This document shows, in pieces, positions 5,342-25,250 of a DNA stretch of 64,000 nt. Every line of letters begins with the position of its first letter. Position 1 is the first letter of the stretch. The DNA comes from an uncultured Gemmatimonadales bacterium (GTDB lineage Bacteria > Gemmatimonadota > Gemmatimonadetes > Longimicrobiales > RSA9): assembly GCA_963741945.1 (NCBI GenBank), contig CAVUKA010000001.1:64001-128000 (forward strand). Direction: 5' to 3'. The translations under genes were made by a program, and so were the position numbers. A model generated the notes under the pieces. That model was not told where the DNA came from and made no database searches. It saw only the letters and a program-made list of their open reading frames with translations.

Positions 5342-5538
5342 CGGTTCTCCTGTGATTCGTGCGTCCGGCTGTGCGCAGCCGGTTCCGTCAATCTGGAGCC
5401 CTGCGCGCCGATGGTCCAGCGAAGAGCTCAACCGCGCGGGCGGAGACGGGAACGCCTCCGGGGGGATGCCCGCGCCGGGAGGATGTACGTCGGCCGATGC
5501 CGGATGTTCCAGCGCTCGTTCCAGGCCTCGGCACGCAT

Positions 5539-5583
5539 GTGCGCCTCACTCGCGTGCGCCTCACGCGCGTGCGGCTCACCCGC
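5539..5583. repeat. 15-bp tandem repeat x3 overlapping the pqiC stop codon
   Basis: gtgcgcctcactcgc/gtgcgcctcacgcgc/gtgcggctcacccgc. Confidence 0.7.
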
Positions 5584-6241: not shown

Positions 6242-7989
6242 GGTCCTGACCTCCCCTGTATCAGCGCTTCGGGGTGACGATCGAGGTAATCGGTGAGGGA
6301 GCGCAGGGAGCGGGCGGCGCGGGTCATCTCGTCGATCAGGTCCTGGAGATTGTGCTGGTCGCGCAGTGAGCCGCCGGAGAGCCCCTGGACCGCGTCGGCC
6401 GTGGAAGCCAGGTCGCTCATGGCCTGTCGGAGGTCGGAGAGCGCCGGCTGGAGCTGGCGGCGGGCGTCGGCGGTGAGCGTATCCGCGTTGGCCATGAGCC
6501 GGTCCAGGTGTTCCAGGGTCTGATTCAGCTCCGGCGATCGGACCAACGTGTCGAGCCCCGCGGTGAGGTTGCGCAGATTGCGCCCGATGGTCCGGATCGG
6601 GAGGGCGGCCACGGCGTCGGCCGCGCGACTGACCGACGACAGCGCGCTCTGGATTCCCCCGCCCGCGATGGCCGGGATCCCTGGCGGCTGCTGCTGCCGG
6701 TCGAGCCTCCGGCCCCGCTCGTCGGTCATCACCAGCGACGCCTGCTCGCCACCGAGCACGAGCCCGGCCTGCGCCAGCTGGGCGCGCATCCCGTGCCGGA
6801 CCAGCTGGTCTACCACGTCATAGAGCGGCCGGGGCGAATCGCCGGGGCCGCGCGGCGCGAGCCCGAACCGTTCCGGATACAGGTCGAGGATCACGGGCGT
6901 GCTGACCACCCCGCGATCCGGCCGCACGCGGAGCTGCACATCCGCCACTTCGCCCACGCGGATCCCGCGCAGTGTCACCGCCGCGCCCGGCTCCAGCCCG
7001 CCGACGGAGCCGGGGAAGTCGGCCGCGAAGCGGACCGGGCGTCCGGCCAGAGGCGAGCGCGCGTCCGTGGCGCTGGCGTAGAGCCGGTACGCGGAATCCC
7101 GCGTGCCCGCAGCGGACCGGGCGGCCCCCGGCTCCGCAGTCGACGCGCCCGCCGCGCCGGGGGACGGCGACCCGGCGGTGTCGGTGAACGTGTCGAACGC
7201 GACACAGCCGTTGAGGAGCCGGGGGATCGGCGGGAAGTGGACGTCCAGTCCGCCCCCGCCGGTGGACACGTCCAGGCCGCTGCAGCGCCAGAAGCGCGAC
7301 TGCGGCTGGACCAGCGTATCGAACGGCGGCCGGACCAGCACATGGAAGCGGACCTCGCCTGCGGACGGCCCCAGGGAGAGACCGAGCACGCGGCCCGCTT
7401 CAAGGCCGTGATAGATGACCTGCGCTCCACGGCCGATCCCGTGGGCGCGCGCGTCCACCAGCGTGACGGTGCGGCCCGGCTCGACATGGGCGTCGGGGGG
7501 CGGTGAAGTCAGACCCGTGAAGTGGTGGGTGGGCTCCCCCGCGCCGGGCTCCATGACCAGGTACGGTCCGGAGAGGAGGCTGGACAGGTCGCCGCTCAGA
7601 AGGCTGGGGCTCTGGATCCAGAAGCGCGTACCCGTGCGCAGCGCTTCCTGCATGCCATCATCCATTGCGAGGTGCATCACCACGCCGTTCAGCGAGTCCC
7701 CCAGCTCCACGGAAGAGACCTGGCCTACCTGCAGCCCGCGGTAGCGGACCGCCGTCGCCCCTTTCCCCGAGATCCCGTGCGCCGTCGGGAAGGTCACGGT
7801 CACGTTCGGGCCGCCCCCGAACACCGCCTTGAACCCCAGGTACCCCGCGACGAGCAGCGCGGCCAGCGGCACCGCCCAGATCCATCCTCGCCAGGACGAC
7901 TGCTGGATGCGCGCCCACGGCGGTCCCGTCTCGTTCTCGGCAGCCTCGCGGTCGGGGGCGTCGCGGTCGGGGGCGTCGCGGTCGGTCAT
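6238..7989 (-). CDS. pqiB: PqiB-family intermembrane transport protein (three MCE domains plus helical needle)
   Basis: WIWAVP TM, VRYRGLQVGQV, TRFW, SLLSGPY, VTLRGIRVGEV, C-terminal LDRHPEALIQGR. Confidence 0.92.
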   Translation of the reverse strand: MTDRDAPDRDAPDREAAENETGPPWARIQQSSWRGWIWAVPLAALLVAGYLGFKAVFGGGPNVTVTFPTAHGISGKGATAVRYRGLQVGQVSSVELGDSLNGVVMHLAMDDGMQEALRTGTRFWIQSPSLLSGDLSSLLSGPYLVMEPGAGEPTHHFTGLTSPPPDAHVEPGRTVTLVDARAHGIGRGAQVIYHGLEAGRVLGLSLGPSAGEVRFHVLVRPPFDTLVQPQSRFWRCSGLDVSTGGGGLDVHFPPIPRLLNGCVAFDTFTDTAGSPSPGAAGASTAEPGAARSAAGTRDSAYRLYASATDARSPLAGRPVRFAADFPGSVGGLEPGAAVTLRGIRVGEVADVQLRVRPDRGVVSTPVILDLYPERFGLAPRGPGDSPRPLYDVVDQLVRHGMRAQLAQAGLVLGGEQASLVMTDERGRRLDRQQQPPGIPAIAGGGIQSALSSVSRAADAVAALPIRTIGRNLRNLTAGLDTLVRSPELNQTLEHLDRLMANADTLTADARRQLQPALSDLRQAMSDLASTADAVQGLSGGSLRDQHNLQDLIDEMTRAARSLRSLTDYLDRHPEALIQGRSGP

Positions 7990-9245
7990 GTCGTGCTGCG
8001 GAGAGCCAGCCGTGTCCGGGCGTGTGTGGTGGTGGCGGCGCCGAGCCTTCCTTCCGCGGCATCCCAGAGCAGGCGCGTGTCGAACAGCCGGGCGGCCATC
8101 ATGGTGAACACCACGACCAGCGTGAACGGCACCGCGGCGATGTCGATGTGCACCAGGGCGGCGCCGGGGAAGGAGAGCAGCGGGATCGAGAACGCCTCGA
8201 TGAGCGGGTCGGTGGTGGACCAGCGACCGATGCCGTGGATCGTGCGGTGGATGTGCGTCTGGCGGCGCAGGTTCTCGGGGTGTGGGCTTCGCACGCGGAA
8301 GAGCAGCCAGGTCAGCCCCACCAGCTTCAGGAACGGCACGAGGATGCTGGCGATGATGATGATCACGGCCAGATACCAGAACCCGGCCTGGAACAGCTCT
8401 CGAACCCCGATGATGATCGTCCGATGCTTAACCCCGGTGGGCTGCATGGTGTAGCTCATCGGGAAATAGTACGAGGGGAAATAGAAGATGTAGCCGGCGG
8501 CCACGAGGGCGGCCGTGCGCGTGAGGGCGTTCAACTTCCGGATCCGCAGGCGCCGGCCGCACCGCGGACAGGGTTTCCCTTCCGCGGAGGCGGGGAGCAC
8601 GAGCATGCAGGCATCGCAGCCGAGCGCGTTTCCGTGCTCGGGCGCCTCGCGGTCCGGCTGAATGGCCTCCCAGACAGTGTGGTTAGTCACCACGCGGTTC
8701 AATACCAGGGAGAGCACGCCGGCGCCGGCGAGGCACCAACCGCCCGGCTCCACGTGGGCGGTGAGCTGCTCGGCCGTCCGCATGTAGATGACGAAGCCGG
8801 CCACGATCATGACCTCGGGCATGGCCCAGAGCCGGATGTTGTCGGCGTAGCGGTAGAGCCGCCCGAGCCAGCCGGGCCTCCAGCGCGTGCGTACGGCCGT
8901 GAGCACGAAGGTCAGCAGCGTGGCGCGTGCCACCGGGAGGAACATGACGAAGGCCGCGAGGATGAGGGCCAGCACGGGCCAGCCGTCGCCCCAGACGCCC
9001 ATGATCCCGGAGACGATCCAGGCCTTGTGCGTCCGTCCCAGTGCGGACGCAGACATGACGGGAAAGAGGTTGGCGAGGAGGAGGAGCACGAGCAGGGCCG
9101 CGGACCAGGCCAGACTCAGGGACAGGGTGAGGGACCGGTTGCGATCCAGGATCTGATCGCAGCGGAGGCACCTGGCCTCGGCTCCGGCCTCCACGACCGG
9201 GATACGCTGTATGGCTCCGCAACCCGAACACGCGACCGTCGACAC
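7986..9245 (-). CDS. pqiA: PqiA-family inner membrane protein (duplicated domain with CxxC motifs)
   Basis: CSGC..CLRC and CDAC..CPRC motifs, ANLFPVM, WAMPEV, ASILVPFLK, IGRWS, FDTRLLWD. Confidence 0.93.
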   Translation of the reverse strand: MSTVACSGCGAIQRIPVVEAGAEARCLRCDQILDRNRSLTLSLSLAWSAALLVLLLLANLFPVMSASALGRTHKAWIVSGIMGVWGDGWPVLALILAAFVMFLPVARATLLTFVLTAVRTRWRPGWLGRLYRYADNIRLWAMPEVMIVAGFVIYMRTAEQLTAHVEPGGWCLAGAGVLSLVLNRVVTNHTVWEAIQPDREAPEHGNALGCDACMLVLPASAEGKPCPRCGRRLRIRKLNALTRTAALVAAGYIFYFPSYYFPMSYTMQPTGVKHRTIIIGVRELFQAGFWYLAVIIIIASILVPFLKLVGLTWLLFRVRSPHPENLRRQTHIHRTIHGIGRWSTTDPLIEAFSIPLLSFPGAALVHIDIAAVPFTLVVVFTMMAARLFDTRLLWDAAEGRLGAATTTHARTRLALRSTT

Positions 9246-9339: not shown

Positions 9340-10347
9340 TCAGGCGGCCGGTTCGTCCTCCGGATGCACGAGGAGCACGGGAAGGCTCGCGGCCCGGATG
9401 ACCTTGTCACTGACGCTGCCCAGGATCAAGCGACGCACGCCGCCCCGGCCGCGCGTGGCCATGGCCACCAGGTCCGCTCCCGCGCTGGCGGCAGCGTCGA
9501 GGATGCCCTCGGCCACGGGTCCCACCCATACGAGCGGCTCCGCCACGGCGACGCCCTGCTCCCGGAGCCGCGCGGAAACGGACTCGAGGTATTCCCCGGC
9601 GGTGCGTCGTGCAGCGTTCACCTGCACCTCCGCCTCTTCCGCCATCTCCGGCATGTACGGCGACGCCACAGGCAGGGTAGGCGCGGTGACGCGGAAGGGA
9701 AGGATCTCGGCCTCCATGACCCGGGCGAGAGCGACGGCTGGAGGCAGGATGGCCTCCGACAGCGGGGAGCCATCGAGTGGCACGAGAAAGCGCCCGATCT
9801 TGGTCGAGCCGGCGGCCGCGACGCTCTGCGCTGCGCCGCCCCCTGCCCCGGCACCCGCCGCCTCCCCGGGGCGGACCAGCAGGATCGGCGTGCTCGACGT
9901 GCGGACCAGGCGATCCGCAACGCTGCCGAGCCACGCACGTTCGATGGGTCCTCTTCCGTGCGTGGACATGACCACGATACCCGGATCCGCTTCCCCGATT
10001 CGACGCGTGAGCTGGGCTTCGGCTGCGCCTTCCAGGACCACCGTGTCGACCTTGTCGATCCCGGCATCGCGAAGCCGCTGCTCGACGCGGTCGAGGTACG
10101 CGGCCCTGTCGCGGAGCAGCGATTCGCGGAGCGCGGCGGTCGAGCCGGTCGTGTCGGCGGGGATCTCCATGCCAATGTCCCAGGCGACGGGTGGCGTGGC
10201 TATGCCTCCGGCGGCCAGCGGAGCGGCGTCGACCACGGTGACGAGCTCCAGCGCGCCGTCGCAGGACCGCGCAATGGCCGTGGCCAGCGGGAGCGCGGCT
10301 TCCGCGAACCCGGATCCATCCAGTGGCACCAGAACGCGCTCGAACAT
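9340..10347 (-). CDS. Universal stress protein, tandem USP domains
   Basis: MFERVLVPLDGS...MSTHGRG..RAWLGSVADRLVR, second domain LVPLDGS...MATRGRGG.RRLILGSVSDKVIR; RBS GGGAGG; true start 10347, not 11334. Confidence 0.93.
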   Translation of the reverse strand: MFERVLVPLDGSGFAEAALPLATAIARSCDGALELVTVVDAAPLAAGGIATPPVAWDIGMEIPADTTGSTAALRESLLRDRAAYLDRVEQRLRDAGIDKVDTVVLEGAAEAQLTRRIGEADPGIVVMSTHGRGPIERAWLGSVADRLVRTSSTPILLVRPGEAAGAGAGGGAAQSVAAAGSTKIGRFLVPLDGSPLSEAILPPAVALARVMEAEILPFRVTAPTLPVASPYMPEMAEEAEVQVNAARRTAGEYLESVSARLREQGVAVAEPLVWVGPVAEGILDAAASAGADLVAMATRGRGGVRRLILGSVSDKVIRAASLPVLLVHPEDEPAA

Positions 10348-10412
10348 GCATCCTCCCTTTGTTGCGCCGGAGACCCGCCTCGGAGACGGACGGGCGCAAG
10401 CCCCGTTCCCGC

Positions 10413-11201
10413 TCAGGCCGTGCCGTTCTCCCGGTCCGTCGGCGGTCCCGGAGGTCGCGGAGCTCCCGGGTCCGCACAGGCGACCCGGCCGATCTCGGGG
10501 CCCCACACGAGGGTTCGTACCTGGCCGGCGGCCTCGCTCCACGCGCCGTGCCAGCGGGCGCCGCCGGGGACCTGGACGATGAAGTCGTCGGCCCCGATCT
10601 CTTCGACCACCACGGCGCGGGTATCGAGCCGAAGCCCCGTTCGCAGCGCCTTCAGGGCGGCTTCCTTCGCCGCCCACGTGAGGTTGGCGAAAAGCGGCCG
10701 CTCGCCCGGCGCCGCCGCGCGCACGCGGGCCGCTTCCGCGGGCGTGAAATAGTCGTCGATGAAGCGCTCGCTTCGCGGCTCGATGGTCTCGAGGTCCACG
10801 CCCAGCTCGCCGCCCCCGAGCCGGGCAGCGGCCAACCCGTTTCCGCCGCTGTGGCTGATGGACACCGCCATGGCAATGAACTCGTCGGCAGCGACGATAC
10901 GGGGTTCCGGAGCGCCGTCGTCCGCCGGGAGCACCTCCACCATGTCGGGCCCGACCTCCCGCCCCGCCGCGGACAGCGCCAGGGCCACGGCGCGCTTCGC
11001 CGCCCAGCGCCCGATCCTCCAGTCGGCTCGCCGTCCGGGCACGCGGTACGCCATGAGCCTGGCCAGCTCCGCATCGGTCAGCCAGTCGCTCGCTTCCGGC
11101 ACCTCCGAGGCGGCCACCAGCACTTCGTGCACGCGCGGCGCGGGGTGCCCGCGCCGGCGCTGGTGGTGGGCGGTGCGCGGCCGGGGCGGCAAAGGTGTCA
11201 T
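10413..11201 (-). CDS. 4'-phosphopantetheinyl transferase (Sfp-like)
   Basis: WLTDAE, GRWAAK, SISHS, GVDLE, WAAKEAALK motifs; ATG overlaps the PKS stop (ATGA). Confidence 0.9.
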   Translation of the reverse strand: MTPLPPRPRTAHHQRRRGHPAPRVHEVLVAASEVPEASDWLTDAELARLMAYRVPGRRADWRIGRWAAKRAVALALSAAGREVGPDMVEVLPADDGAPEPRIVAADEFIAMAVSISHSGGNGLAAARLGGGELGVDLETIEPRSERFIDDYFTPAEAARVRAAAPGERPLFANLTWAAKEAALKALRTGLRLDTRAVVVEEIGADDFIVQVPGGARWHGAWSEAAGQVRTLVWGPEIGRVACADPGAPRPPGPPTDRENGTA

Positions 11202-14200
11202 GCCTTCTGTCGGAGCTCCGGGAACGGGCGCCCTTCCATGGTGGTGGGGAGGGCGGCGGTGCGGTAGCCACGCACCGAAGCCAGCACGGTGCCATCCTCC
11301 GCCACCACGTCCACGTCGTAGCCGGCTTCGGCATCGCCGCCGGCGAGCAGCGCCATGGAGCCTCCGGCGTCGCCCCGGGCCGGGTCGATCAGGTCGACGC
11401 GTTCCACGCTGTACGGCAGCCCCATGCGGGCCGCGTCCGCGATCTCGGCCAGGCCGGCGGTCTGGAACGCCAGCTCGACGAGGCGAGGCGCCGTGAGCAG
11501 CGTCCGCTCCGCGGGGACGTGGTTCGGCGGCAGCGCTTCGGCGAGCCGCCCGGCCAGGAGCGCGCCGGAGCGCCACGCCCGGCCCAGGACCCGGTACGCT
11601 GGGCCATGGAAATAGACATCGTAGATGGCGTCCGCGCCGATCCCGGGCCCGCTCCCGGGAAGATCGCGGCGGTGCGGAGCGTCGGGCGCGCTGGCGGTGA
11701 GCCTCACACGCGCCGTGAAATGCGTGGTCACTTCGGGCTCGGGGCGGCCGTGCAGCGTGCGGGCGCCGAGCAGCGCGCACTCCGCCACCACCTCGTCGCC
11801 ATCCTCGCCGTAGCGCACCCGGACGCTCACGGTGCGCGGCTCATCGCGGTAGAACTTGAACGGCGCGAGGAACGTGACGTCCTCCACGGCCGCGACCCGC
11901 AGCGCCGGGAACGGCAGCGCGGCGGCCTCCGCCATGGCTTCCATGCCCATGACGCCGGGGAGCACCGGGGTGCCGTCGATCCGGTGGTCGTCCAGGAACG
12001 GCTGGGCTTTCGGATCGAGCCGGGTTTCGACCAGGAGCCCGTCGTTCAGGCCGAGCTCCACCACCCGCTCGGCGACGACACCACCGGACCCGTCCGCGTC
12101 CGCCCGTACGCCGCCGCCGGGCGCCCGCGCATCGAGCATGGCGCCCAGCGCGCCGGCGATCACGACTTCGCCGCGGGTGCCGGCGGACAGCTCGCGCCGG
12201 ACGACGGGAACCCCCGCCGCGGGCTCGAGCATGTCAATGCCCGCGGCCTTCAGGATGGTCGGGATCGAGCCGCGGGTGGCCATGCCGATGCCTCCCCACG
12301 CGGTCCAGTCGATGGCTATGCCGCGGGAGGCCGACCTCCGACTGCGGAACGATGAGACCGCCTTGCAGAGCAGGTCGTTGGCCGCGCTGTAGTCGGCCTG
12401 GCCCGCGTTGCCGAAGCGGCCGGCGATGGAGCTGAAGACGACGGCGGCGCCCAGCGGGGCGTCGCCGAGCCCCGCCAGCAGGTTGAACCAGCCGTCGGTC
12501 TTCACGTCGAACACGAGGTCGAACTCTTCCGGCGACTTCTCCGGGATCGACCGGCTGACTTCGAGTCCCGCCGCGTGCACCAGAACGTCCAGCCTGCCCC
12601 GGGCGGCCACCACCTCGCGCATCACGGCCGCCACGGCATCGGCGTCGCGCAGGTCGACGGCGCGCCAGTGCGCGGTGCCACCGGCGGCCTCCACGGCGCG
12701 GATGGCGGCGAGTGCCGCGGCCGCCCGCTCGAGGCGGGCCAGCTGCTTCTCCACCAGCGCCGGCGTCGCCCGCTCGCCGCTGTCCTGGAGCCGCGCGAAG
12801 ATCTCCCGCTTCAGCCCGTCCCGATCGGAAGCGAGCCGCGCCAGGTCCGGGTCGGCCGGGTCGGGCTCCGGCGTCAGGTCCAGGAGCCAGAACTCGCCGC
12901 CCGTCGGGGCCAGGTCCGCGAGAATGGCCGACGTGATGCTCCCCGCCGCGCCCGTGACCACCCAGGCGGCGTCGGCGCCCGGCAGATCGTGCCCCGGCTC
13001 CACGGAACGCGTGTCGAGGCCGACCGTCCAGCGCCTGCCTCCGGCGTGGCCGACCTCCACCACGCCCGGGTCCCGCAGGGTCTCCTCGATGAGCAGGTCC
13101 GCCACTTCGGCCGTCCTCCGGCCCGGGGCGAAGTCCACCGCCTTCACGAGCGCGGCCGGCCGCTCGCGGGCGAACGACTTCACGAGCCCGGTGACGGCGC
13201 CACCGAGGACATCGGCGGCCCCTTCGGCGTCGTACCCGTGGCGGCCGCCGAGACGCGTGGCCGAAACCACGAACCCGCCCGCCGCGCCCACGTCGTCATA
13301 GAGCGAGCGGAGCAGTGCGTAGAGCGCTTTCACGCGGAGCTGGAGCGCCTCCCGCCGTTGCCGGGGCTCGAGCAGCGCGGCGTCGTCGAGGATGTCGAGC
13401 GCCGGAAGCCAGTACACCCCCCGGATCGGGCCTTCCGCCCGCCACCCAGCCAGCCGCTTCGCCAGCGCATCCGGGCTCGCCGCGTCCTCGAGCACCAGCG
13501 GCGCGACGCCGCGTTTCTCCAGCCGGCCCACGAGCGCTTTCGCGACCCCGCCGGTGTCGGGCATCACGACCACGCGGGCTCCCTTGCCCAGCGAGACGCC
13601 CGTTTCCCGGAAGAACGCGATGGGCGGACGCAGTCGCGGGACCGGAACGCGGCGCGGAACCGCCTGCGCGGCCGCCATGTCACTCGCCATGTCACCCGCC
13701 ATGTCACCCGCCATGGCGCGCGGGGCCACGTCGAGGCCGGGGGTCGGCGGCGTGTCCGGAGGCGCGGACCCGGGCTGCGGGGCTCCACCGGCCGCGGCGA
13801 TCGATGGTGCTTCGCCGGCGGCGGGCGCGAGGTCCGGTCGCTTCTCGTACACGAACTCGATGGCCCGCTTCAGCGTGGGGTAGTCCCGGAGCGCCAGCTC
13901 CTCGTCCCGCTCGATGCCGTACTCCTCGCGGATCGCCGCGAACATCTCCGCCTGCTTCACGGTGTCGATGCCCAGGTCCGCTTCCAGGTCCAGGTCCAGC
14001 TCCAGCATGTCCGGCGGGTAGCCGGTCTGCTCCGCCACGATCCCAAGGACGCGCGCGCGCACGGGGTCGCCGGGCGCTGCGCCCGGAGCGGGGGCTGCCG
14101 CGGCCGGGGCGGGTGGAGGGGAGGTGGTCGCGCCGGCGGCGGGTGCGAGGTCCGGGCGCTTCTCGTACACGAACTCGATGGCCCGCTTCAGCGTGGGGTA

Positions 14201-17200
14201 GTCCCGCAACGCCAGCTCCTCGTCCCGCTCGATGGCGTACTCCTCGCGGATCGCCGCGAACATCTCCGCCTGCTTCACGGTGTCGATGCCCAGGTCCGCT
14301 TCCAGGTCCAGGTCCAGCTCCAGCATGTCCGGCGGGTAGCCGGTCTGCTCCGCCACGATCCCCAGCACGCGCTCCCGGATCGGATCCGCGACCGCCACGG
14401 CCGCGGTGCCCGGGACAGCAGTCGTGTCCGGGGCCAGGCCCGCGCCGGGCTGCGGGCGCGCACCCGGGGCCGCGGCCGGCGCGCTCGGCACGGACGCCGT
14501 CGCCGGCAGGGGCATTGCCCCGGGGGCGGCCGGTGTCCCGGCCGGGGCGGGGGCGCCGTTGCGCAGCCGGAGCACGCGCTTCACCACTTCCAGCTCGCCC
14601 GGCCGCCCGCCAGCGATGTCCGCCAGCCACCGATCCCAGGCCGCGCGGTCGGCGATGCGGTGGTGGAATCCCACGCTGCCGGGCGCCCGGCGCGCGCCGT
14701 CGGGCGGCGGGGTCCAACGCAGGAGGCTCATGGCGATCTGCGAGCCGAAACCGGCGCCCAGCCGCAGCGCGTAGGTGACCGGCCGAGCGCCGCCGCGGGA
14801 CAGGTTGAGCTCGCCGAGCTCGGGATCGACGTCGCGGAAATTGGCCACCGGGGGGATCACGCCCGTCTCGAGCATGCGCACGGCCAGAGCGTCCTCGATG
14901 CCCACAGCCATCGGGTGGCCCGTGTGACCCTTGGTATTGGCGACGATGATGCGGTCCACCGCGTCGCCGAAGACGCTCCGCAGCGCCACGACTTCCGCCG
15001 ACGCGCTCCCGCCGCGCGCAGGCGTGTACGTCTCGTGGGAGACGAACACGGTGTCGCCGGCGATCTGGCGGCGGTCGATCCCCCATTCTCGCTCGGCATC
15101 GGAAACCAGGCGCTCCATCACGGCGGCGATGTGCTGCACGTCCAGGCGGCTGCCATGGAACGCGCTGTTCGCCACCGCGGTGCCGAGGATCTCACAGATC
15201 GGCGACAGCCCCCGCTCCGCGGCGGCGTCCAGCGCCTCCACCACGAGCGCCGCGCCACCCATCCCGATGATGAGACCATGACGGCGCCGATCAAACGGGA
15301 GCGCAGCGTCCTCCAGGCGCTCGTCGGTGGCCGCGGCTCCGGAGGCCAGGAACCCGCTGCCGAACCACGGAAGGAGGGCGTCGGTGGTGATGTCGTCCGC
15401 GGACAGGACAATGACGCGACGGCAGCGCCCGGCGGCGATCCAGTCCCGGGCGAGCGCCGTGGCCTGGGTGCCGCTGGCGCACGCTGCGTTGGTGCCGATG
15501 TTGGGGCCGCGCGCAACGATGTACTCGGCGAACTGGGCGTGGCCCATGCTGAGCACCTGGAACAGGAAGCGGCGGTCGAAGCGGAAGGGGTTGGCTGCCA
15601 GCTCGGTCTCCAGGGCGACGATCCGGGCGTCCACCTCCTCGATGGCAGACGCTTCCCCTCCCGCCGGCAGCTTCGCTCGCAGGGATCGGAGCTCCTCCAG
15701 CCGCTCGCGCCGGGCACGGTCCTCGTGGTAGCCCTCGATCACGCGCGCGAAGGAATCGTAGCCGGGGAAAGCGGACGCGAAGATGACACCGGTGTCGTCC
15801 CGCATCGATTCCGGGAGCGCCCAGCCGTCCGGGAGCTTCGATCCGGTGGTCGTGGTCTTGTGCCGCAGCACGAGCGGAATTCCGGCATCGCGCAGCGCGT
15901 CGAGCCCCGCGGCGATGGCGAGGCGGGTGACCCGGTCCAATGCGCCGAGCCGATCCTCCGGGAAGCCGTACTCCTCCACCAGGTCCACTGCCCCGCCGCG
16001 GCCAGCGAGCTTGATCACGTCCGCAGGGTCGTCGATGGTCTCGAAGCGCGCGTCCCCGTTCGACCCTTTCACCAGCCGGGTGATCCGGTGCCCGGCCATG
16101 GCTTCACGCAGCCCCTGCGGCACTGCGCCGATCAGCGCCTCTCCCGCGAGGATCCGCTCCAGGTTCCGCTCATCGAACACCCACTCCCCACCGGGGAGCC
16201 CGAGCGCCGCGCCCGTGATCCCCACCCGCACCGGGCGCGCGGCCCGGCCACCCGCCCAGGTCTCGAAGCTGCGCTCGAGGAAGTCGGAGAACATCCGGCC
16301 CAGCGCCAGGTGCCGGTCCTCGTCCCGTGTGGCGCCGGCGATGCGGGAACGCGTGGCTGACAGCGACGGGTCGGGCGCGGGGGTCGGCCAGGGCGTGTCG
16401 GGCGTGTCGGCCGTATCGCGCATGTGGGGCGCGGACAGCGCGGCGGCGGCGGGAGTCGCGGGCTGTGCCAGGCTGTGGGCGCGCGGCGATGGCGCGAGCG
16501 TCCGGGCCGCCCCGTGACCGGCGGCGTAGAGGCCGCAGAGCGCGCGGTTGAACGAGACGACGTCACCCGTCCTGGGGTGATTCGTGAAGAGGGTGGTCAC
16601 GTCCTCGCGGCCGCCGAGAACGTCTTCGGCGAAGCCGTAGAGGACGCGCTTCGGGCCCATCTCGATGAACACGCGGGCGCCGGCGTCGTACAGCGTCTCC
16701 AGCCCCCTGACGAACTGGACGGGGGAGCCGACCTGCCGGGCGAGGATGTCGCGCATGCGCTCCACCACGTCGCCCTCCGCCGGGTAGAACTGGCCATCCA
16801 CGTTGGCGACGATGGGGCGGTCGGGCGGCCGGAGCGACAGCGAGCTCAGCACCTGAACGAGCGGCTCCGAGGCCTGGGCCACGATCTCCGTGTGGAACGC
16901 GTGGCTGACGGGGAGCGGCTGCGCGCGCATGCCGGCTCCCCGCAGTGCTTCCATGGCCGCGGTCACAGCCGCGGTCGCGCCGCCGATGACGCACTCCTTC
17001 GTGCTGTTCAGGTTGGCAATGACCACATAGCCGTCCACGCCTCCGATCACGTCACGCACGCGCTCCACGTCGCCGAACACGGCAGCCATGAGCCCGTTGT
17101 CCTCCATGGCGAGGTGCGTCATGGCGTCCCCGCGCGCGGAGACGGCCCTGAGCGCGTCGGCGAACGACATGCCCGCGGCCGCGACGAGGGCGCCATACTC

Positions 17201-19270
17201 GCCGAGGCTGTGCCCCATGACCATGTCGGGCTCGATGCCGTACGCGACCATCAGCCGGGCCAGCGACGTGTCCACGGCCAGCATCGCGGGCTGGGTGATG
17301 GCCGTCTGCTTCAGCGCCTCCTCTGCGGCCGCCAGTGCAGTACCGTCCCCGGCGTCCACGAAGATCCGGGACGTGAGCGTGCTCCCGATGAGCGGCGCCA
17401 TGACCCCGTCCGCCTCGTCGAACGTGTCCGCCACCACCGGCTCCGTGTCGCGCAGCCCCCGCAGCATGTTGGCGTACTGGGAGCCCTGCCCCGTGAACAG
17501 GAACGCGACTCTCCCGGGCGCGCCCCGGCCCAGGAACACGCCCTTGTTCCGGAGCGCGCGCCAGCGGCCGGCATCGCCCGTGTCGAGCGCGGCGAGGGTC
17601 CTGGTGGCCAGGTCCGCCAGCTCGGCGGCGTCGCCGTAGTCGATGGCGAGGCGGACCGGCGCGTCGAGGTCGGCGCGGGCGGGCGGTGCGGGCGGCGGCG
17701 CGTCGCCGGCCTCCGCGGCCGCCTTCACCGCTTCCAGGCGACGCGCGATGTCCGCTTCCGACGCCCCGCCGATCACGAGCGCGCCCCGAAGGGGAGCCTT
17801 GAGCGGCATGGCCCCGGGTACGTGCGCCCGCGGCGCGGGTGAGGGCACGTACTCCTCCAGCACCACGTGGAAGTTCGTCCCGCCGAAGCCGAACGCGCTC
17901 ACGCCCGCCCTGCGCGGGCCGCCATCGGAGCGATGCGGCCAGTCGCGCATCTCGGCCACCACGGCCATCGTGGCGCGGCCGAAATCGATGCCGGGGTTCG
18001 GGCGCGCGAAGTTGATGCTGGCGGGGACAGCGCCATGGTGGAGCGAGAGGGCGGCCTTGAGCATCCCAACGGCGCCCGCAGCCCCCTTCAGGTGCCCGAT
18101 GTTCGACTTCACCGAGCCGAGCATGAGGGCGCCCGGCGCCAGCGCGGCCCCGGCGAACACCTCATCCATGCTCGCGACTTCCACGACGTCGCCCACGCGC
18201 GTCGACGTGCCGTGCCCCTCGATCAGGTCGCCCGCCGCGGGCACCAGGCCGGCGTTGGCCCACGCGCGCTCCACCGCCAGCTGCTGGCCGATGGGGTTCG
18301 GCGCCGTGATCCCCTTCCCTCGCCCGTCGCTGGAGCCACCCACCCCGCGGATGACGGCGTAGACGCGGTCGCCATCTCGCTCGGCGTCGGCCAGCCGCTT
18401 CAGCAGGAAGATCACCGCACCCTCGCCCATCACGAAGCCATCGGCCCCCTCCGCGTACGGCCGGGAGCCGGTGGCGCTGAGCGCGCCGATCTTGCAGAAC
18501 TTCACGAATGCGGACGGGCTCATGTTCGCGTCCGCGCCGCCCGCCAGGACCGCGTCGAAATCGCCATTCTCGAGACCGTCGATGGCGGCATAGAGGGCGG
18601 CCATGGCGGAGGCGCACGCGGCGTCCGTGACGAAATTGGGGCCGCGGAAGTCGTACAGCGCGGCAATGCGGCCGGCGGTGATGTTGGACAGCTCCCCCGG
18701 CATCGTGTCCTCGGTGATATCCGGGATCCGCCGGTTCACACCGGCCCGGAGCTCTTCGAGGACCGCGGCGCGCACGTCCTCCGGCAGGGCGCGGTAGGCG
18801 GGCGCCGCCCGGAGCTCCTCGGCCACTTCGGGGAAGAGGATGCGGGCGCCCGTCAGGAGGTGGTAGTCGCCACCCATCGCGTTGCCGAGAATCACGGCCG
18901 TGCGGTCGCCATCGAGCGGGCGATGGGGGTGTCCATAGTCGAGCAGCGCCTGCCTCGCCGCGGCGATGGCGTACTTCTGCGTGGGATCCATGGACGCCGC
19001 CACTTTCGGCGGGATCGGCATGCGCCACCCGAGCGGGTTCCACTCGTAGTCGGCGACCCACCCGCCGATCTTCGAGTACGTCCGGTCCGGCGCGCGCGGG
19101 TCCGGGTCGAAGTAGAGGTCCGCGTTCCAGCGCTCGCGGGGAACGTCGCGGATGCTGTTGCGTCCTTCCTTCAGGTTCTTCCAGAACGCGGCCACGTCGG
19201 GCGCGTCCGGGAGGACCGCCCCGACTCCCACGATGGCCACCGACCTGCTGCGCGCGCTGCTGTCCATCAT
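11198..19270 (-). CDS. Iterative type I PKS/FAS, PfaA-like, KS-AT-KS-ACP-ACP-KR-DH
   Basis: KS1 DAACAS/EGHGTST/KSNIGHLK; AT GQGSQY/GHSLGEY/VSHAFH; KS2 NAACAS/SHETYT/TKGHTGHP; two ACPs LEADLGIDTVKQAE; KR VTGAAGSIT/FSSIAGRFGNAGQADYSAAN; DH DHRIDGTPVLPG. Confidence 0.93.
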   Translation of the reverse strand: MMDSSARSRSVAIVGVGAVLPDAPDVAAFWKNLKEGRNSIRDVPRERWNADLYFDPDPRAPDRTYSKIGGWVADYEWNPLGWRMPIPPKVAASMDPTQKYAIAAARQALLDYGHPHRPLDGDRTAVILGNAMGGDYHLLTGARILFPEVAEELRAAPAYRALPEDVRAAVLEELRAGVNRRIPDITEDTMPGELSNITAGRIAALYDFRGPNFVTDAACASAMAALYAAIDGLENGDFDAVLAGGADANMSPSAFVKFCKIGALSATGSRPYAEGADGFVMGEGAVIFLLKRLADAERDGDRVYAVIRGVGGSSDGRGKGITAPNPIGQQLAVERAWANAGLVPAAGDLIEGHGTSTRVGDVVEVASMDEVFAGAALAPGALMLGSVKSNIGHLKGAAGAVGMLKAALSLHHGAVPASINFARPNPGIDFGRATMAVVAEMRDWPHRSDGGPRRAGVSAFGFGGTNFHVVLEEYVPSPAPRAHVPGAMPLKAPLRGALVIGGASEADIARRLEAVKAAAEAGDAPPPAPPARADLDAPVRLAIDYGDAAELADLATRTLAALDTGDAGRWRALRNKGVFLGRGAPGRVAFLFTGQGSQYANMLRGLRDTEPVVADTFDEADGVMAPLIGSTLTSRIFVDAGDGTALAAAEEALKQTAITQPAMLAVDTSLARLMVAYGIEPDMVMGHSLGEYGALVAAAGMSFADALRAVSARGDAMTHLAMEDNGLMAAVFGDVERVRDVIGGVDGYVVIANLNSTKECVIGGATAAVTAAMEALRGAGMRAQPLPVSHAFHTEIVAQASEPLVQVLSSLSLRPPDRPIVANVDGQFYPAEGDVVERMRDILARQVGSPVQFVRGLETLYDAGARVFIEMGPKRVLYGFAEDVLGGREDVTTLFTNHPRTGDVVSFNRALCGLYAAGHGAARTLAPSPRAHSLAQPATPAAAALSAPHMRDTADTPDTPWPTPAPDPSLSATRSRIAGATRDEDRHLALGRMFSDFLERSFETWAGGRAARPVRVGITGAALGLPGGEWVFDERNLERILAGEALIGAVPQGLREAMAGHRITRLVKGSNGDARFETIDDPADVIKLAGRGGAVDLVEEYGFPEDRLGALDRVTRLAIAAGLDALRDAGIPLVLRHKTTTTGSKLPDGWALPESMRDDTGVIFASAFPGYDSFARVIEGYHEDRARRERLEELRSLRAKLPAGGEASAIEEVDARIVALETELAANPFRFDRRFLFQVLSMGHAQFAEYIVARGPNIGTNAACASGTQATALARDWIAAGRCRRVIVLSADDITTDALLPWFGSGFLASGAAATDERLEDAALPFDRRRHGLIIGMGGAALVVEALDAAAERGLSPICEILGTAVANSAFHGSRLDVQHIAAVMERLVSDAEREWGIDRRQIAGDTVFVSHETYTPARGGSASAEVVALRSVFGDAVDRIIVANTKGHTGHPMAVGIEDALAVRMLETGVIPPVANFRDVDPELGELNLSRGGARPVTYALRLGAGFGSQIAMSLLRWTPPPDGARRAPGSVGFHHRIADRAAWDRWLADIAGGRPGELEVVKRVLRLRNGAPAPAGTPAAPGAMPLPATASVPSAPAAAPGARPQPGAGLAPDTTAVPGTAAVAVADPIRERVLGIVAEQTGYPPDMLELDLDLEADLGIDTVKQAEMFAAIREEYAIERDEELALRDYPTLKRAIEFVYEKRPDLAPAAGATTSPPPAPAAAAPAPGAAPGDPVRARVLGIVAEQTGYPPDMLELDLDLEADLGIDTVKQAEMFAAIREEYGIERDEELALRDYPTLKRAIEFVYEKRPDLAPAAGEAPSIAAAGGAPQPGSAPPDTPPTPGLDVAPRAMAGDMAGDMASDMAAAQAVPRRVPVPRLRPPIAFFRETGVSLGKGARVVVMPDTGGVAKALVGRLEKRGVAPLVLEDAASPDALAKRLAGWRAEGPIRGVYWLPALDILDDAALLEPRQRREALQLRVKALYALLRSLYDDVGAAGGFVVSATRLGGRHGYDAEGAADVLGGAVTGLVKSFARERPAALVKAVDFAPGRRTAEVADLLIEETLRDPGVVEVGHAGGRRWTVGLDTRSVEPGHDLPGADAAWVVTGAAGSITSAILADLAPTGGEFWLLDLTPEPDPADPDLARLASDRDGLKREIFARLQDSGERATPALVEKQLARLERAAAALAAIRAVEAAGGTAHWRAVDLRDADAVAAVMREVVAARGRLDVLVHAAGLEVSRSIPEKSPEEFDLVFDVKTDGWFNLLAGLGDAPLGAAVVFSSIAGRFGNAGQADYSAANDLLCKAVSSFRSRRSASRGIAIDWTAWGGIGMATRGSIPTILKAAGIDMLEPAAGVPVVRRELSAGTRGEVVIAGALGAMLDARAPGGGVRADADGSGGVVAERVVELGLNDGLLVETRLDPKAQPFLDDHRIDGTPVLPGVMGMEAMAEAAALPFPALRVAAVEDVTFLAPFKFYRDEPRTVSVRVRYGEDGDEVVAECALLGARTLHGRPEPEVTTHFTARVRLTASAPDAPHRRDLPGSGPGIGADAIYDVYFHGPAYRVLGRAWRSGALLAGRLAEALPPNHVPAERTLLTAPRLVELAFQTAGLAEIADAARMGLPYSVERVDLIDPARGDAGGSMALLAGGDAEAGYDVDVVAEDGTVLASVRGYRTAALPTTMEGRPFPELRQKA
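13814..14386 (-). repeat. Intragenic near-identical duplication of the ACP domain (period 318 bp)
   Basis: Two ~255-bp copies; block 13918-14044 is identical to 14236-14362. Confidence 0.9.
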
Positions 19271-20955
19271 GCGGCTCCGTTCGTGTCACGGCCGTACAGT
19301 GCGTCGGCCACCTCGTCCATGTCCGCCACGAGTCCCGCCTGCGCCGCGTGGATCGGCCCGACGCGGAGCGACTGCTGGAAGCCCGCGAGATCCGGGAGCG
19401 GCACGCCATCGGCGCCCACGGCCCAGCGGATTCCCTCCGCCACGACCGCCGCCGCGGCCTCCCGCGCGTAGACACGGCTGGCCGCCGTGAGGGCGTCCGG
19501 TGCCAGGCGACGATCGGCTTTGGCCGGCAGCTCGCCCGCCGCGGCCCGCGCGGCCCGGCGAGTCAGCGCCGCCGCCGCTTCGACGCGGGCGATGAGGTCG
19601 CCGAACCGCAACAGGAGGTGCTGACTCCGCGTGAGGCGCTGGAGACGGGCGCGCTCCAGCAGCTCCGCCAGGGCGTGGGCGGCCAGAGCGACCGTGTCGG
19701 CCCCCACGCCGGGCGCCACGGCGGACACCTGCTCCAGCTTCACCGCCTCATCGTGGTAGTGCTGCCCGCGCGTCTTCAGATGCTGCTGCCAGCGGTCCCG
19801 TGCAATGGTCATCTCCATGATCTCCGACGTGCCCTCGTAGATCGTGGTGATGCGTACGTCGCGGCGGATCTTCTCCACCTCGTACTCCCGCACGTAGCCG
19901 TAGCCGCCCAGCGCCTGCATCGCCGCGTCCGCCGCCGCGTTCCCCGCTTCCGTGGCGATGTACTTGGCAATGGCGCCCTCCGTGTTCAGCGCGCCTTCGC
20001 CCGCGTCGATCCGCACCGCCGTCTCCTCGATGCACGCCCGCCCGGCTTCCAGACGGCAGGCGTGCGGCACGATCAGCTTGTGCGTGTAGCCCTGTTTCTC
20101 GGCAAGGGGACCGCCCGCCTGGATGCGCGTCCTCGAGTACGCGATGGCCCGATCCAGCGCCGCCCAGCCGGCGCCCAGGCCAAACGCGGCCACCATGAGC
20201 CGCGTGTAGCCGAACACCAGCTGCGCCTGTACGAGCCCCTGCCCCTCCACGCCGCCCACCAGGTCGGACGCCGGGACATACACGTCGTCGAAGGAAAGCG
20301 CGGCCGTATTGCTCGCCCGGATCCCGTGCTTGTCCTCCGGCTTCCCGTGGTCGAGCCCGTCCACCCCCTTCTCCAGCACGAACCACGTCGGCCCGCCCGG
20401 GGCAAGGGCGAGAACGCTGTAGAGGTCGGCGAACCCGCCGTTGCTGATCCACATCTTGGCGCCGTTGATGCGATAGCCGACCACCGCGCCGCCCTCCTCC
20501 ACCCGCTTCGCCACCGTCCGGAGCGCGCCCAGATCGCTTCCCGCTTCCGGCTCCGTGGCGCCGTACGCCATCAGCAATCCCTCTTCCGCGATCCGCCCCA
20601 GCCAGCGCGCCTTCTGCTCTTCCGTCCCACCCCAGAGGATCGGATCACTGCCCAGGAACGTGGCCAGAACCCCCGTCGCCACGCCGAGATCGATCGCCGA
20701 CAGCAGCTCGCACACGCGGTACACGTCGAACGCGCCCCCATCCATCCCGCCGTATGCCTCGGGGATGAAGAGGAGCTGCACGCCCAGCTCCCCGCACATG
20801 GCGCGGATCGTCTCCTCCGGGAACTCGTGGCTGGCGTCCAGCTCGAGCAGCCGCTCCCTGGGCAGGTGCTCGGCCGCGAAATCGCGGATCGAGGCGAGGA
20901 TCAGCTCCAGCGTCTCCCGGTCCAGACCGGCGTTCGGCGTCGCAACGATGGTCAT
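19267..20955 (-). CDS. Acyl-CoA dehydrogenase with C-terminal extension
   Basis: TEPEAGSD, INGAKMWISNG, KHGIRASNT, QALGGYGY..EY, IYEGTSEI; stop overlaps the PKS start. Confidence 0.95.
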   Translation of the reverse strand: MTIVATPNAGLDRETLELILASIRDFAAEHLPRERLLELDASHEFPEETIRAMCGELGVQLLFIPEAYGGMDGGAFDVYRVCELLSAIDLGVATGVLATFLGSDPILWGGTEEQKARWLGRIAEEGLLMAYGATEPEAGSDLGALRTVAKRVEEGGAVVGYRINGAKMWISNGGFADLYSVLALAPGGPTWFVLEKGVDGLDHGKPEDKHGIRASNTAALSFDDVYVPASDLVGGVEGQGLVQAQLVFGYTRLMVAAFGLGAGWAALDRAIAYSRTRIQAGGPLAEKQGYTHKLIVPHACRLEAGRACIEETAVRIDAGEGALNTEGAIAKYIATEAGNAAADAAMQALGGYGYVREYEVEKIRRDVRITTIYEGTSEIMEMTIARDRWQQHLKTRGQHYHDEAVKLEQVSAVAPGVGADTVALAAHALAELLERARLQRLTRSQHLLLRFGDLIARVEAAAALTRRAARAAAGELPAKADRRLAPDALTAASRVYAREAAAAVVAEGIRWAVGADGVPLPDLAGFQQSLRVGPIHAAQAGLVADMDEVADALYGRDTNGAA

Positions 20956-23717: not shown

Positions 23718-25055
23718 TCAGTAGGCGTCGAAGCGCGGATTGACGATGGCGTTGTGGATGGAGCCGAACGTGTAGCTGAGGCCGACGGACAGGCGGTAGG
23801 TGAAGTCCGTCTGGAGCTCGGTGAGGCGGAGGAGGATCTCCTCGTTGGAAGCGCCCTCGGCGGGGAGTGAGATCTGGTCGTGGACGCGGCTGTAGCGGCC
23901 GCGGACATCGAGGGACAGCCCGCGCAGCAGGTTCACTTCGACATCACCGCGCCAGGTGATGCGGTACTTGGCGGCATCGGCCTGCGCCTGCGCCTCCGGC
24001 GTGGGCGCGTCGGGTGTCCAGTGGAGGATCTGCCGTCCCTCCACGGAGGAGTAGATGCTGCCCCAGGGCTGTCGCAGGGAGAGGGCGACGTTGAGCGTGT
24101 GGTCGAGGAGGCGGTCCCGCGTCTTGCCGTACAGCGTGACTTCGTCGTACGTGCGGTAGGCGGGGCCGAGGGTGTAGAGGATGGTGAGCTGGCGGCGGGT
24201 GGACTCGTCGTAGGGGAAGACGTCATACTCGATCCCGGGCGCCACGCGAGCGGCGAGGGAGATGTTGGAGTAGGTGGACGAGCTGAGGGAGCCGACCAGG
24301 CCTGCGGACCAGTGGGCGCCGAGCGCCTTGACGTTCATCCCGTCGAGGCGGTAGGAGCGCTGCACGGCGCGGGTGGTGGATCCGTCCTCGAGGGTGTAGC
24401 GGCTGTCGTCGTAATTCGACTCCAGGCCGAGCTCGGTCTTCCACTCGGGGGTGACGCGGTTCACGTCGACGCTCCCCTCGAGGGAGGTGCTCTTCTGGAG
24501 CGACTCGCCCTCGAGGCTGGTGCCGGCGCGCAGCCGGAAGACCCAGGCGTTCCAGGGATCGACCGCGACACCCGTGGCGGCGCCCGCGTGGATGTCTCCG
24601 GTGTAGGCCACGTCGAGGCCGGGTGCGAGAGCCGTACGGGCGACGAAGGGGACGAGCCCGATGCGGAGCCAGCGAGCGAAGCGCTGGCGATTCTCGTCGT
24701 CCGTGGTCGACGGGGGCGAGGAGAAGTGCAGGGTGTCCGCCCGCCCGAGGAACCCGTTCCGACCGATGAGCCTCATGGTGTAGGCGCGCCCGCCGCCGCC
24801 GGTCTCGTCGGTGGTGACGAGGACGTGGACGGCGGCATCCTGCCGGTTCCGGACCCATTCGATCCAGTCCATCTCGGTGCGCAGGTAGTCGAAGTCGCAC
24901 CCGGGCACCCGGTCCTGGCAGTCGAGATAGACGCGGAGACCGGCGGGCTCCGGCTGCTGCGCGGCGGCGCCGCGCGGCGCGAGACCGGCCCCGATGACGA
25001 GGAGGAGAGCAATGCCCAGGCGGCCCGGGCCGCCACGCGCGCCGATTCGATCCAT
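23718..25055 (-). CDS. Putative outer-membrane beta-barrel protein
   Basis: Signal peptide, VYLDC..CDFDYLRTE N-domain, DPWNAWVF, amphipathic strands, C-terminal YTFGSIHNAIVNPRF; start uncertain. Confidence 0.7.
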   Translation of the reverse strand: MDRIGARGGPGRLGIALLLVIGAGLAPRGAAAQQPEPAGLRVYLDCQDRVPGCDFDYLRTEMDWIEWVRNRQDAAVHVLVTTDETGGGGRAYTMRLIGRNGFLGRADTLHFSSPPSTTDDENRQRFARWLRIGLVPFVARTALAPGLDVAYTGDIHAGAATGVAVDPWNAWVFRLRAGTSLEGESLQKSTSLEGSVDVNRVTPEWKTELGLESNYDDSRYTLEDGSTTRAVQRSYRLDGMNVKALGAHWSAGLVGSLSSSTYSNISLAARVAPGIEYDVFPYDESTRRQLTILYTLGPAYRTYDEVTLYGKTRDRLLDHTLNVALSLRQPWGSIYSSVEGRQILHWTPDAPTPEAQAQADAAKYRITWRGDVEVNLLRGLSLDVRGRYSRVHDQISLPAEGASNEEILLRLTELQTDFTYRLSVGLSYTFGSIHNAIVNPRFDAY

Positions 25056-25250
25056 GAACTCCGCTGGGTACGTATCCCTTGGGTCGGGGCTCGCAAGATG
25101 AACCCCGGGCGCTCCGCCCGCAAACACACCGGGCCCGGGCCCGGACCGTCATGCCCCGCCCGGCTTCTGCCCACCGCTTTCCGGGGCCGGGCGCAGGCCT
25201 TATCCTCCGATGTTCAACCGAACACTCATCCCGAATCCAGGAACCCGCCC

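Follow-up and report, generated by a model that had tools for sequence, protein, structure and literature searches.

A second, divergent ketosynthase with a predicted complete active site in a Type R lipid synthase of an uncultured Gemmatimonadales bacterium

The genome of an uncultured Gemmatimonadales bacterium (GenBank assembly GCA_963741945.1) encodes a 2690-residue, iterative PfaA-like type I synthase that carries two ketosynthase (KS) domains in one chain. The gene lies on the minus strand of the stretch analyzed here, 64,000 nucleotides of contig CAVUKA010000001.1 (positions 64,001 to 128,000), which we call the window and in whose own numbering all positions are given. We find that the second of these domains, KS2, is predicted to be catalytically complete: within a FabF-like thiolase fold it retains the Cys-His-His triad of FabF along with its Lys, its gate Phe and both of its Thr residues, with activity itself a prediction. 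We favor, with moderate confidence, the reading that KS2 is a second catalytically competent elongating ketosynthase of a fatty-acid/polyketide synthase belonging to the family described as Type R. The features of KS2 on which this reading depends are the following.

14702..16237, minus strand: KS2, divergent FabF-like ketosynthase, residues 1012-1523 (Pfam, NCBIfam, PDB alignment, AlphaFold2, Foldseek, tree)
15593..15760, minus strand: helical hairpin insert of KS2, residues 1171-1226 (AlphaFold2 helices; gaps in E. coli FabF)
15479..15481, minus strand: codon of C1264, the predicted active-site Cys of KS2, in NAACAS (residues 1261-1266, 15473-15490; FabF alignment)
15035..15037, minus strand: codon of H1412, the predicted first catalytic His, in SHETYTPAR, with SHETYT at residues 1411-1416 (15023-15040; alignment with FabF HGTST)
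14915..14932, minus strand: codons K1447 to H1452, with the predicted catalytic Lys and second His (NTKGHTGH), TKGHTGHP being residues 1446-1453 (14912-14935; FabF alignment)

Results

Sequence and predicted fold of KS2

A first-pass annotation of this DNA had marked positions 14715-16235, that is residues 1012-1519 and thus KS2, as a second, divergent KS with a complete active site between an acyltransferase (AT) and the acyl carrier proteins (ACPs). Its description of the protein holds: the motifs that it quoted (NAAC1264AS, SHETYT, TKGHTGHP and LETELAA) all stand in the translation at the places given, a Pro/Ala linker precedes KS2, and Pfam returns the domain order KS1-AT-KS2-ACPs, with a ketoreductase (KR) and a polyketide synthase (PKS)-type, or PS-type, dehydratase (DH) following.

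Taken alone, the KS2 piece matches PF00109 (E=8.8e-13) and PF02801 (E=4.2e-6). Its top NCBIfam match is the fabF model TIGR03150 (E=1.4e-36, 126 bits), its 22 NCBIfam matches include no model of a type I PKS or of PfaA, and a FabH-type match around the Cys (PF08545) stays below threshold, at 21.4 bits against a cut-off of 24. The best sequence matches in the PDB are FabF proteins (HMMER, E about 1e-22).

The roles of the FabF Cys, His, Lys and His, and of the gate Phe, are textbook knowledge, and their counterparts in KS2 can be assigned position by position. C1264, H1412, K1447 and H1452 align with the four FabF residues both in HMMER alignments to solved FabF structures and in a MAFFT alignment with E. 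coli FabF; in the latter the F of the KS2 motif GFGS falls on the gate Phe and both Thr of H-x-T-x-T are present. FabF/KAS II (4b7v from P. aeruginosa, 1kas from E. coli) is the best match of KS2 in sequence and in structure, with triad, Lys, Thr-x-Thr and gate Phe identical. KS2 differs from it in being only 20-27% identical, in reading HETYT for HGTST and GFGSQ for GFGGTN, and in being embedded in a megasynthase.

An AlphaFold2 model of KS2 (47 sequences) has a mean pLDDT of 88.9 and a pTM of 0.90. Foldseek places FabF structures first among the matches of this model (E about 4e-31, target TM 0.85), and the matches listed, whose target TM values are 0.77-0.87, are with few exceptions FabF/KAS II-type synthases. 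The earlier claim of catalytic completeness is therefore upheld at the level of prediction, by a FabF-like modeled fold and by residues that align with the FabF Cys, His, Lys and His.

KS2 has about 100 residues more than FabF, which form two beta-hairpin insertions and a two-helix hairpin (MAFFT, AlphaFold2). The hairpin is the helical insert to which the first-pass annotation had drawn attention, and it is real: AlphaFold2 predicts a pair of long helices that span positions 160-189 and 196-215 of KS2 (protein residues 1171-1200 and 1207-1226), and about 45 hairpin residues fall on gaps in E. coli FabF (MAFFT). The charged helical stretch at 1185-1226 includes RARRERLEELRSL at 1185-1197 and LETELAA at 1220-1226. 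The sequence of the hairpin is variable among homologs, yet the hairpin is present throughout the homolog alignment (A1). This enlarged helical region is placed where FabF and KasA form a cap over the acyl pocket and, by that analogy, its position hints at long chains.

In the ESM Atlas, the ketosynthase clusters nearest to KS2 include eukaryotic ones (diatoms, Zoopagomycota), with scores of 0.93-0.96, and are otherwise generic ketosynthase clusters. KS2-like domains may occur in eukaryotes.

Conservation and phylogeny

A word-indexed search with KS2 recovered thousands of multidomain relatives; in the best 120, identity over KS2 is 64-100% and the Pfam content is the same. We also searched 1.84 billion cluster representatives exhaustively with HMMER, which returned 656 proteins at E<=1e-30; the top 150 of these matches all lie below 1e-122, and in most of them KS2 is found some 1000 residues into a chain of 2000-3900 amino acids.

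For the analysis of conservation we took from 271 proteins those KS2-type domains in which the catalytic core is covered, 264 in all, which span 37-100% identity. The first-pass annotation had named a triad not conserved in homologs as the outcome that would count against it; the triad and the Lys (Cys-His-Lys-His) are kept in 262 of the 264 domains, and its claim is not refuted. Position by position, the Cys is found in 262 domains, the first His and the Glu next to it in 263 each, and the Lys and the second His in all 264, and the family motifs SHETYTPAR and NTKGxTGH are almost invariant. KS1 keeps its own Cys-His-Lys-His set in 185 of 186 homologous KS1-type domains. Species-representative genomes contain at least 592 stretches that match the synthase architecture, of which we kept 80 as related loci; over these 80, tblastn identity is 61-75% for KS2 and 55-71% for KS1. 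By these comparisons of sequence, KS2 is as conserved as KS1.

A maximum-likelihood KS tree, an analysis that had been proposed in the first-pass annotation, recovers KS1 and KS2 each as one clade with SH-aLRT support of 100, so that KS2 forms a family-wide clade apart from KS1; both clades have long stems, and many of their subclades match. The tree comprises the first 45 of the 50 proteins that hold both complete domains, with E. coli FabF and FabB as the sole outside references; the program warns of long branches meeting, and the root is arbitrary. The two domains appear to have separated long ago, and because they form separate clades and the catalytic residues are kept, we judge that KS2 is not a recent duplicate of KS1 and has not decayed.

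A chain-length factor (CLF) by definition lacks the active-site Cys, which is Gln in type II CLFs. In KS2 this Cys is not replaced: C1264 lies on the FabF Cys, and Cys occupies the position in 262 of 264 domains. Because Cys-His-Lys-His is kept in 262 of 264 homologs, KS2 is, as far as its residues can be read, not a CLF in the accepted sense.

Predicted pairing of KS1 with KS2

Modeled as a complex, KS1 and KS2 gave a score of 0.86, where the best control gave 0.00; of 157 solved complexes 116 reach this mark, as do 2 of 215 mismatched pairs. Contacts agree between runs to at least 85%, the partner pLDDT is at least 84, and the predicted interface is the canonical KS dimer interface, made by the strands that precede each Cys. 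The first-pass annotation had proposed structure prediction of this pairing. Since solved structures of KS dimers and of KS/CLF dimers exist, resemblance to them may account for the score, and we take the model as a likeness and not as proof.

The synthase and its carrier domains

The open reading frame (ORF) of the synthase has a third-position G+C (GC3) of 0.91, typical of coding DNA in this window, whose mean G+C is about 72%. Along the 2690-residue protein Pfam gives the order KS1-AT-KS2-ACP-ACP-KR-DH, with ketoacyl-synt and Ketoacyl-synt_C found twice each. In addition to KS2, the features are these.

11198..19270, minus strand: iterative PfaA-like type I synthase, 2690 aa (ORF, translation, Pfam, NCBIfam TIGR02813)
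17828..19270, minus strand: KS1, PfaA-type ketosynthase, residues 1-481, with C219, H353, K388 and H393 (Pfam PF00109, PF02801 and PF16197, 9-481 including linker; motif positions)
16616..17503, minus strand: AT domain, residues 590-885, with GHSLGE and HAFH motifs (Pfam PF00698, E=1.3e-40; NCBIfam fabD, 196 bits)
16238..16498, minus strand: Pro/Ala-rich linker from AT to KS2, residues about 925-1011 (translation; no Pfam match there)
13853..14371, minus strand: two tandem ACPs, residues about 1634-1700 and 1740-1806, each with DLGIDTV (Pfam PP-binding, two stretches)
12293..12730, minus strand: KR core, residues 2181-2326 (Pfam PF08659, E=1.3e-23)
11246..12061, minus strand: PKS-type (PS-type) DH, residues 2404-2675 (Pfam PF21089 and PF14765)

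KS1 carries its Cys in DAAC(219)AS, residues 216-221. The AT is the sole acyltransferase of the chain, and we take its GHSLGE and HAFH motifs to mark malonyl specificity. Pfam finds no enoyl reductase domain and no loading acyltransferase or starter domain in the synthase, and no thioesterase (TE) domain in the synthase or in its neighbors. NCBIfam TIGR02813 (omega_3_PfaA) matches the synthase with 855.7 bits, under its cut-off of 1010.1, and no pfaB, pfaC or pfaD is found in the window or among the conserved neighbors of related loci. With the model below its cut-off and no PfaB/C/D-like genes, we rejected PfaA as the identity of the synthase.

In both ACPs a Thr (T1664 and T1770, in DLGIDTV) aligns with the Ser that bears phosphopantetheine in E. 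coli AcpP (DLGADSL) and in PigH (DLGVDSI). Across the KS2-bearing homologs this position is Thr 671 times and Ser 10 times; among 270 proteins, 223 have Thr only and 38 lack the motif, and one representative (P0171) has Ser at the same place. The family-wide Thr-type motif, together with an ever-present dedicated phosphopantetheinyl transferase (PPTase), suggests that pantetheine may be Thr-linked in these carriers. The literature that we searched for Thr-linked phosphopantetheine gave no report of it.

Gene neighborhood

Two genes, neither of them in the first-pass annotation, flank the synthase on the same strand.

19267..20955, minus strand: acyl-CoA dehydrogenase (ACAD) gene, 562 aa (Pfam Acyl-CoA_dh_N/M/1)
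10413..11201, minus strand: Sfp-type PPTase gene, 262 aa (tblastn, 45% identity to the PPTase of related locus L001; Pfam PF01648, E=1e-18)

The ACAD stop codon overlaps the synthase start codon, and the PPTase ATG overlaps the synthase stop codon, ATGA at both junctions; by this arrangement ACAD, synthase and PPTase form a predicted translationally coupled operon. Our GC3-based gene filter overlooked the PPTase gene and is thus an unreliable gene finder in this window; tblastn recovered the gene. The ACAD has a YEGT motif, which we take to be the catalytic-Glu motif, and a C-terminal extension of about 170 residues, and its top NCBIfam match is the acryloyl-CoA reductase AcrC (240 bits, under the cut-off of 640). 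An ACAD ortholog of 64-80% identity lies directly upstream of the synthase, on the same strand, in 73 of the 80 related loci, which are all 73 of those with upstream DNA; the other seven (L013, L024, L035, L053, L061, L067 and L078) stop at contig ends. By tblastn over these loci, ACAD conservation exceeds that of any synthase domain.

Sixty-six of the related loci are 15 kb or longer, and in these we counted further neighbors by tblastn.

43/66 loci: single-chain BC-BCCP-ACC_central-CT carboxylase, downstream of the synthase
27/66 loci: PPTase
64/66 loci: carboxylase or PPTase
38/66 loci: EtfA
38/66 loci: EtfB
37/66 loci: Fe-S/CCG oxidoreductase
11/66 loci: WS/DGAT wax-ester/diacylglycerol acyltransferase, upstream

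The genes for EtfB and EtfA, the two electron-transfer flavoprotein (ETF) subunits, and for the Fe-S/CCG oxidoreductase precede ACAD in 37-38 of the 66 loci. The carboxylase is a protein of 1794 aa (example locus L066:11902-17286; for WS/DGAT, L075:74-1225). When the neighbors in these 66 loci were clustered, a FabH-like gene appeared in only 4 and the conserved neighbors included no FadD-type ligase; tblastn finds no WS/DGAT in the window.

The PPTase gene is followed by a tandem universal-stress-protein gene (9340-10410). Just downstream of the operon, at 5576-9245 on the minus strand, lie PqiA-, MlaD/PqiB- and PqiC-like genes of diderm lipid transport; because none of the 80 related loci has a counterpart beside the synthase, they are probably unrelated neighbors. 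Two large tricorn-protease-like genes (PD40 repeats, Tricorn_C1, PDZ, peptidase S41) are found at 2021-5431 on the minus strand and at 23880-28574 on the plus strand.

The Type R family and its variants

Type R secondary lipid synthases were defined as having one pfaA homolog of the order KS-MAT-CLF-ACP(3-6)-KR with a PPTase gene downstream, in the hosts Koribacter, Solibacter, Elusimicrobium and Roseiflexus and with an uncharacterized product (Shulse and Allen 2011, PMC3098273). In Koribacter an acetyl-CoA carboxylase gene lies between synthase and PPTase (PMC3098273). The window synthase has the order KS-MAT-second KS-like domain-tandem ACPs-KR (Pfam) and a PPTase gene downstream (PF01648); judged by domain order and PPTase as the sections of PMC3098273 on Type R describe them, it is a member of this family. 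The first-pass annotation had implied an unusual arrangement, which its match to a type described in 2011, and to at least 592 genome stretches, does not support.

The likeness to the described Type R is close: a single giant gene has its second KS-like domain between the AT and the tandem ACPs and a KR after them, the PPTase gene is directly downstream, Acidobacteria are main hosts among the relatives, and the carboxylase that follows the synthase in 43 of 66 loci recalls that of Koribacter. The window synthase differs in having 2 ACPs in place of 3-6, in a PS-type DH recognized after the KR, and in the complete predicted active site of the domain there labeled CLF; the passages of that paper on Type R make no mention of a conserved ACAD, of ETF genes or of Thr-type ACPs. 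Since KS2 has the Cys whose absence defines a CLF, the 2011 label does not, on our alignments, fit the KS2-type domain.

The relatives belong mainly to Acidobacteriota and Gemmatimonadota, and also to Calditrichota, KSB1, Verrucomicrobiota, Binatia, Bacteroidota, Myxococcota and Actinomycetota. Thirteen representatives have a fused N-terminal FabK-like enoyl reductase (PF03060; TIGR03151, E=1.8e-31), namely P0152, P0153, P0154, P0183, P0184, P0195, P0233, P0235, P0236, P0252, P0254, P0256 and P0269, and 28 have a fused C-terminal PPTase. Distant FabK-fused members are often PPTase-fused as well, with enoyl reductase (ER) and PPTase in one chain of the order ER-KS-AT-KS2-ACPn-KR-DH-PPTase. No fusion of ACAD to the synthase was found among the 272 proteins searched. 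KS2 is the constant part across these variants. Three ketosynthase stretches occur in P0217, P0256 and P0269, and a carrier domain lies before the AT in P0233 and P0254.

Discussion

The reading that we favor gives KS2 an ordinary chemistry. Because the residues for malonyl decarboxylation and for condensation are all kept, we infer that KS2 would carry out decarboxylative Claisen elongation with malonyl-ACP loaded by the sole AT. It may act on chain lengths or beta-carbon states other than those handled by KS1, a division of labor comparable to that of FabB and FabF or of the two ketosynthases of polyunsaturated fatty acid (PUFA) synthases. KS1 and KS2 could together form a pseudo-dimer, of the kind known from KS and CLF, with two live sites. 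Enoyl reduction would be supplied in trans by the adjacent ACAD, with ETF where it is encoded, and in sister clades a fused FabK-like reductase would take the place of the trans ACAD. We suggest this part for ACAD because the sister clades fuse a FabK-like reductase, and this clade always has ACAD and often EtfAB; the butyryl-CoA dehydrogenase/Etf of clostridia is a precedent for enoyl reduction. An oxidative, desaturating role of ACAD is the alternative to enoyl reduction. We would expect the synthase to make a 'secondary' lipid that is long-chain and mostly saturated, and the release of this product would fall to a separate enzyme (WS/DGAT in some loci) and not to a TE domain.

Several observations weigh against an elongating KS2 with ACAD as its reductase. 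The catalytic Cys is absent from 2 of the 264 KS2-type domains, P0167 (Trp) and P0225 (Ala, Arg). KS2 lies far under the FabF equivalog cut-off (126 against 493.75 bits in TIGR03150); it is, by its alignments, FabF-like and not a FabF ortholog. At conserved positions beside its catalytic residues it departs from every characterized elongating KS, with HETYT for HGTGT, GFGSQ for GFGG-T-N and RHGL for RDGF; we know of no characterized precedent for these changes and, being conserved, they could signal a different substrate or reaction. The complex prediction, as a model, does not separate a heterodimer of KS1 and KS2 from homodimers of each. Fe-S partners of the EtfD type normally serve oxidation, and the window itself has no ETF, Fe-S oxidoreductase or carboxylase gene (tblastn; Pfam of the other window ORFs). 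The literature searched for this architecture yielded no biochemistry or product of any member, and Shulse and Allen 2011 was the only relevant work.

It is possible, but in our estimate unlikely, that KS2 is a priming ketosynthase, which would make the starter by malonyl-ACP decarboxylation or from an acyl-CoA primer and perform the first condensation, leaving all later rounds to KS1. Initiation does need some route, as the synthase has no loading acyltransferase or starter domain and a FabH-like gene is found in only 4 of 66 loci, and KS2 is FabF-like, not type-I-like, with the sub-threshold PF08545 match around its Cys (21.4 against 24 bits). However, in domains dedicated to priming by decarboxylation (KSQ, type II CLF) Gln replaces the Cys that KS2-type domains keep in 262 of 264 cases, and the enlarged helical cap, in its analogy with KasA, looks more like an adaptation to long chains.

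We think it improbable that KS2 acts as a transacylase or release catalyst that would pass the finished chain from its Cys to CoA, a glycerolipid, an alcohol or another acceptor. Such a role would fit the lack of a TE and the presence of WS/DGAT in only 11 of 66 loci, so that the other loci need another route of release; it would also fit the motifs, unusual yet conserved, that KS2 has next to its catalytic His and in its gating loop, and a weak NCBIfam match to the ketosynthase-like 'acyltransferase subunit' AmcF (78.9 bits). The decarboxylation residues, two His and the Lys, would not be needed for transacylation, yet they are invariant.

The first-pass annotation had offered a terminal head-to-head Claisen condensation as one role of KS2, with the missing TE as something it would explain. 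Here KS2 would join two long chains, as Pks13 or OleA do, and in so doing release the product. The synthase and its neighbors do lack a TE domain, as that annotation held, but PUFA-type synthases in general have no thioesterase, and the lack is therefore a weak argument for head-to-head condensation; nor is it evidence for a condensing release if, as we propose, release is by a separate enzyme. The downstream single-chain biotin carboxylase of 43 of 66 loci could carboxylate a long acyl chain, by analogy with mycolate condensation. On the other side, it contains ACC_central, which is typical of acetyl-CoA carboxylases. The sole AT has malonyl-type motifs, on our reading of their meaning, and KS2 has the full decarboxylative set. 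OleA-type enzymes have a FabH-like Cys-His-Asn, where KS2 has a FabF-like Cys-His-His, and no FadD-type ligase is among the conserved neighbors. Pks13 and OleA share with KS2 the thiolase fold of condensing enzymes and a proposed chain-joining route, but the window synthase lacks the TE, the N-terminal ACP and the FadD partner. A Pks13-type condensase was rejected as a candidate: the NCBIfam Pks13 model NF040607 matches only residues 6-482, which are KS1, with 419.7 bits against a cut-off of 2100, it is not among the 22 matches of KS2, and there is no TE. The Koribacter carboxylase has itself been read as an acetyl-CoA carboxylase (PMC3098273, in its account of that locus). With no positive evidence for it, we consider the head-to-head proposal very doubtful.

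Least probable of all is a non-catalytic, CLF-like partner of KS1 with a vestigial triad: the CLF label in the Type R passages of PMC3098273, the position after a KS, the predicted canonical pairing that recalls KS/CLF dimers and the altered motifs around the triad would agree with it, but 262 of 264 domains, some with as little as 37% identity, retain the four catalytic residues as well as both Thr and the gate Phe, and across the old split suggested by the long-stemmed KS1 and KS2 clades vestigial residues would be expected to drift, as the Cys did in known CLFs.

Two better known systems can be compared with this synthase. In PUFA synthases, PfaA has the order KS-AT-ACPn-KR-DH and PfaC the order KS-CLF-DH2. 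The window synthase shares with them PfaA-like KS1-AT and ACP-KR-DH parts (TIGR02813, 855.7 bits) and two KS-type domains per synthase. It differs in falling under the PfaA cut-off (1010.1), in having no FabA-type DH domains, and in carrying its second KS-type domain in the same chain, after the AT, with the Cys kept. The KS/CLF heterodimer of type II PKS (actinorhodin, 1tqy) resembles it in that KS1 and KS2 may form a pseudo-dimer of two different thiolase-fold domains, and the actinorhodin KS chain (1tqy_A) matches KS2 in sequence (E=3e-16) and in structure (rank 33). It is unlike KS2 in that its CLF has no Cys, and the CLF chain is not among the best 60 of the 72 PDB sequence matches.

The architecture was already catalogued in 2011, and the complete active site predicted for KS2 contradicts the CLF label it was then given, at least as the passages on Type R present it. 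The spread of the family, over at least 592 stretches and many phyla, places it among the most common large synthases that soil bacteria have. Both of its ketosynthases appear to be catalytically equipped and inherited together, which would change the chemistry expected of it, and the conserved partners (ACAD, ETF, carboxylase and PPTase) and Thr-type carriers define a compact operon.

It is tempting to extend this picture to the whole family as a self-contained type I fatty-acid synthase of an undescribed kind, although in its full form we hold this to be rather unlikely. KS1 and KS2 would be a live intramolecular heterodimer with divided substrate ranges; ACAD-like enoyl reduction in trans would be wired through EtfAB and the Fe-S oxidoreductase to the membrane quinone pool, or replaced by a fused FabK-like reductase in sister clades; phosphopantetheine would be borne on Thr and placed there by a co-evolved PPTase; and the product would be a major, so far gene-less lipid of Acidobacteriota, Gemmatimonadota and other soil phyla. 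If ACAD is indeed a reductase and the Thr is pantetheinylated, these synthases would be exceptions to two textbook rules of fatty-acid and polyketide synthases.

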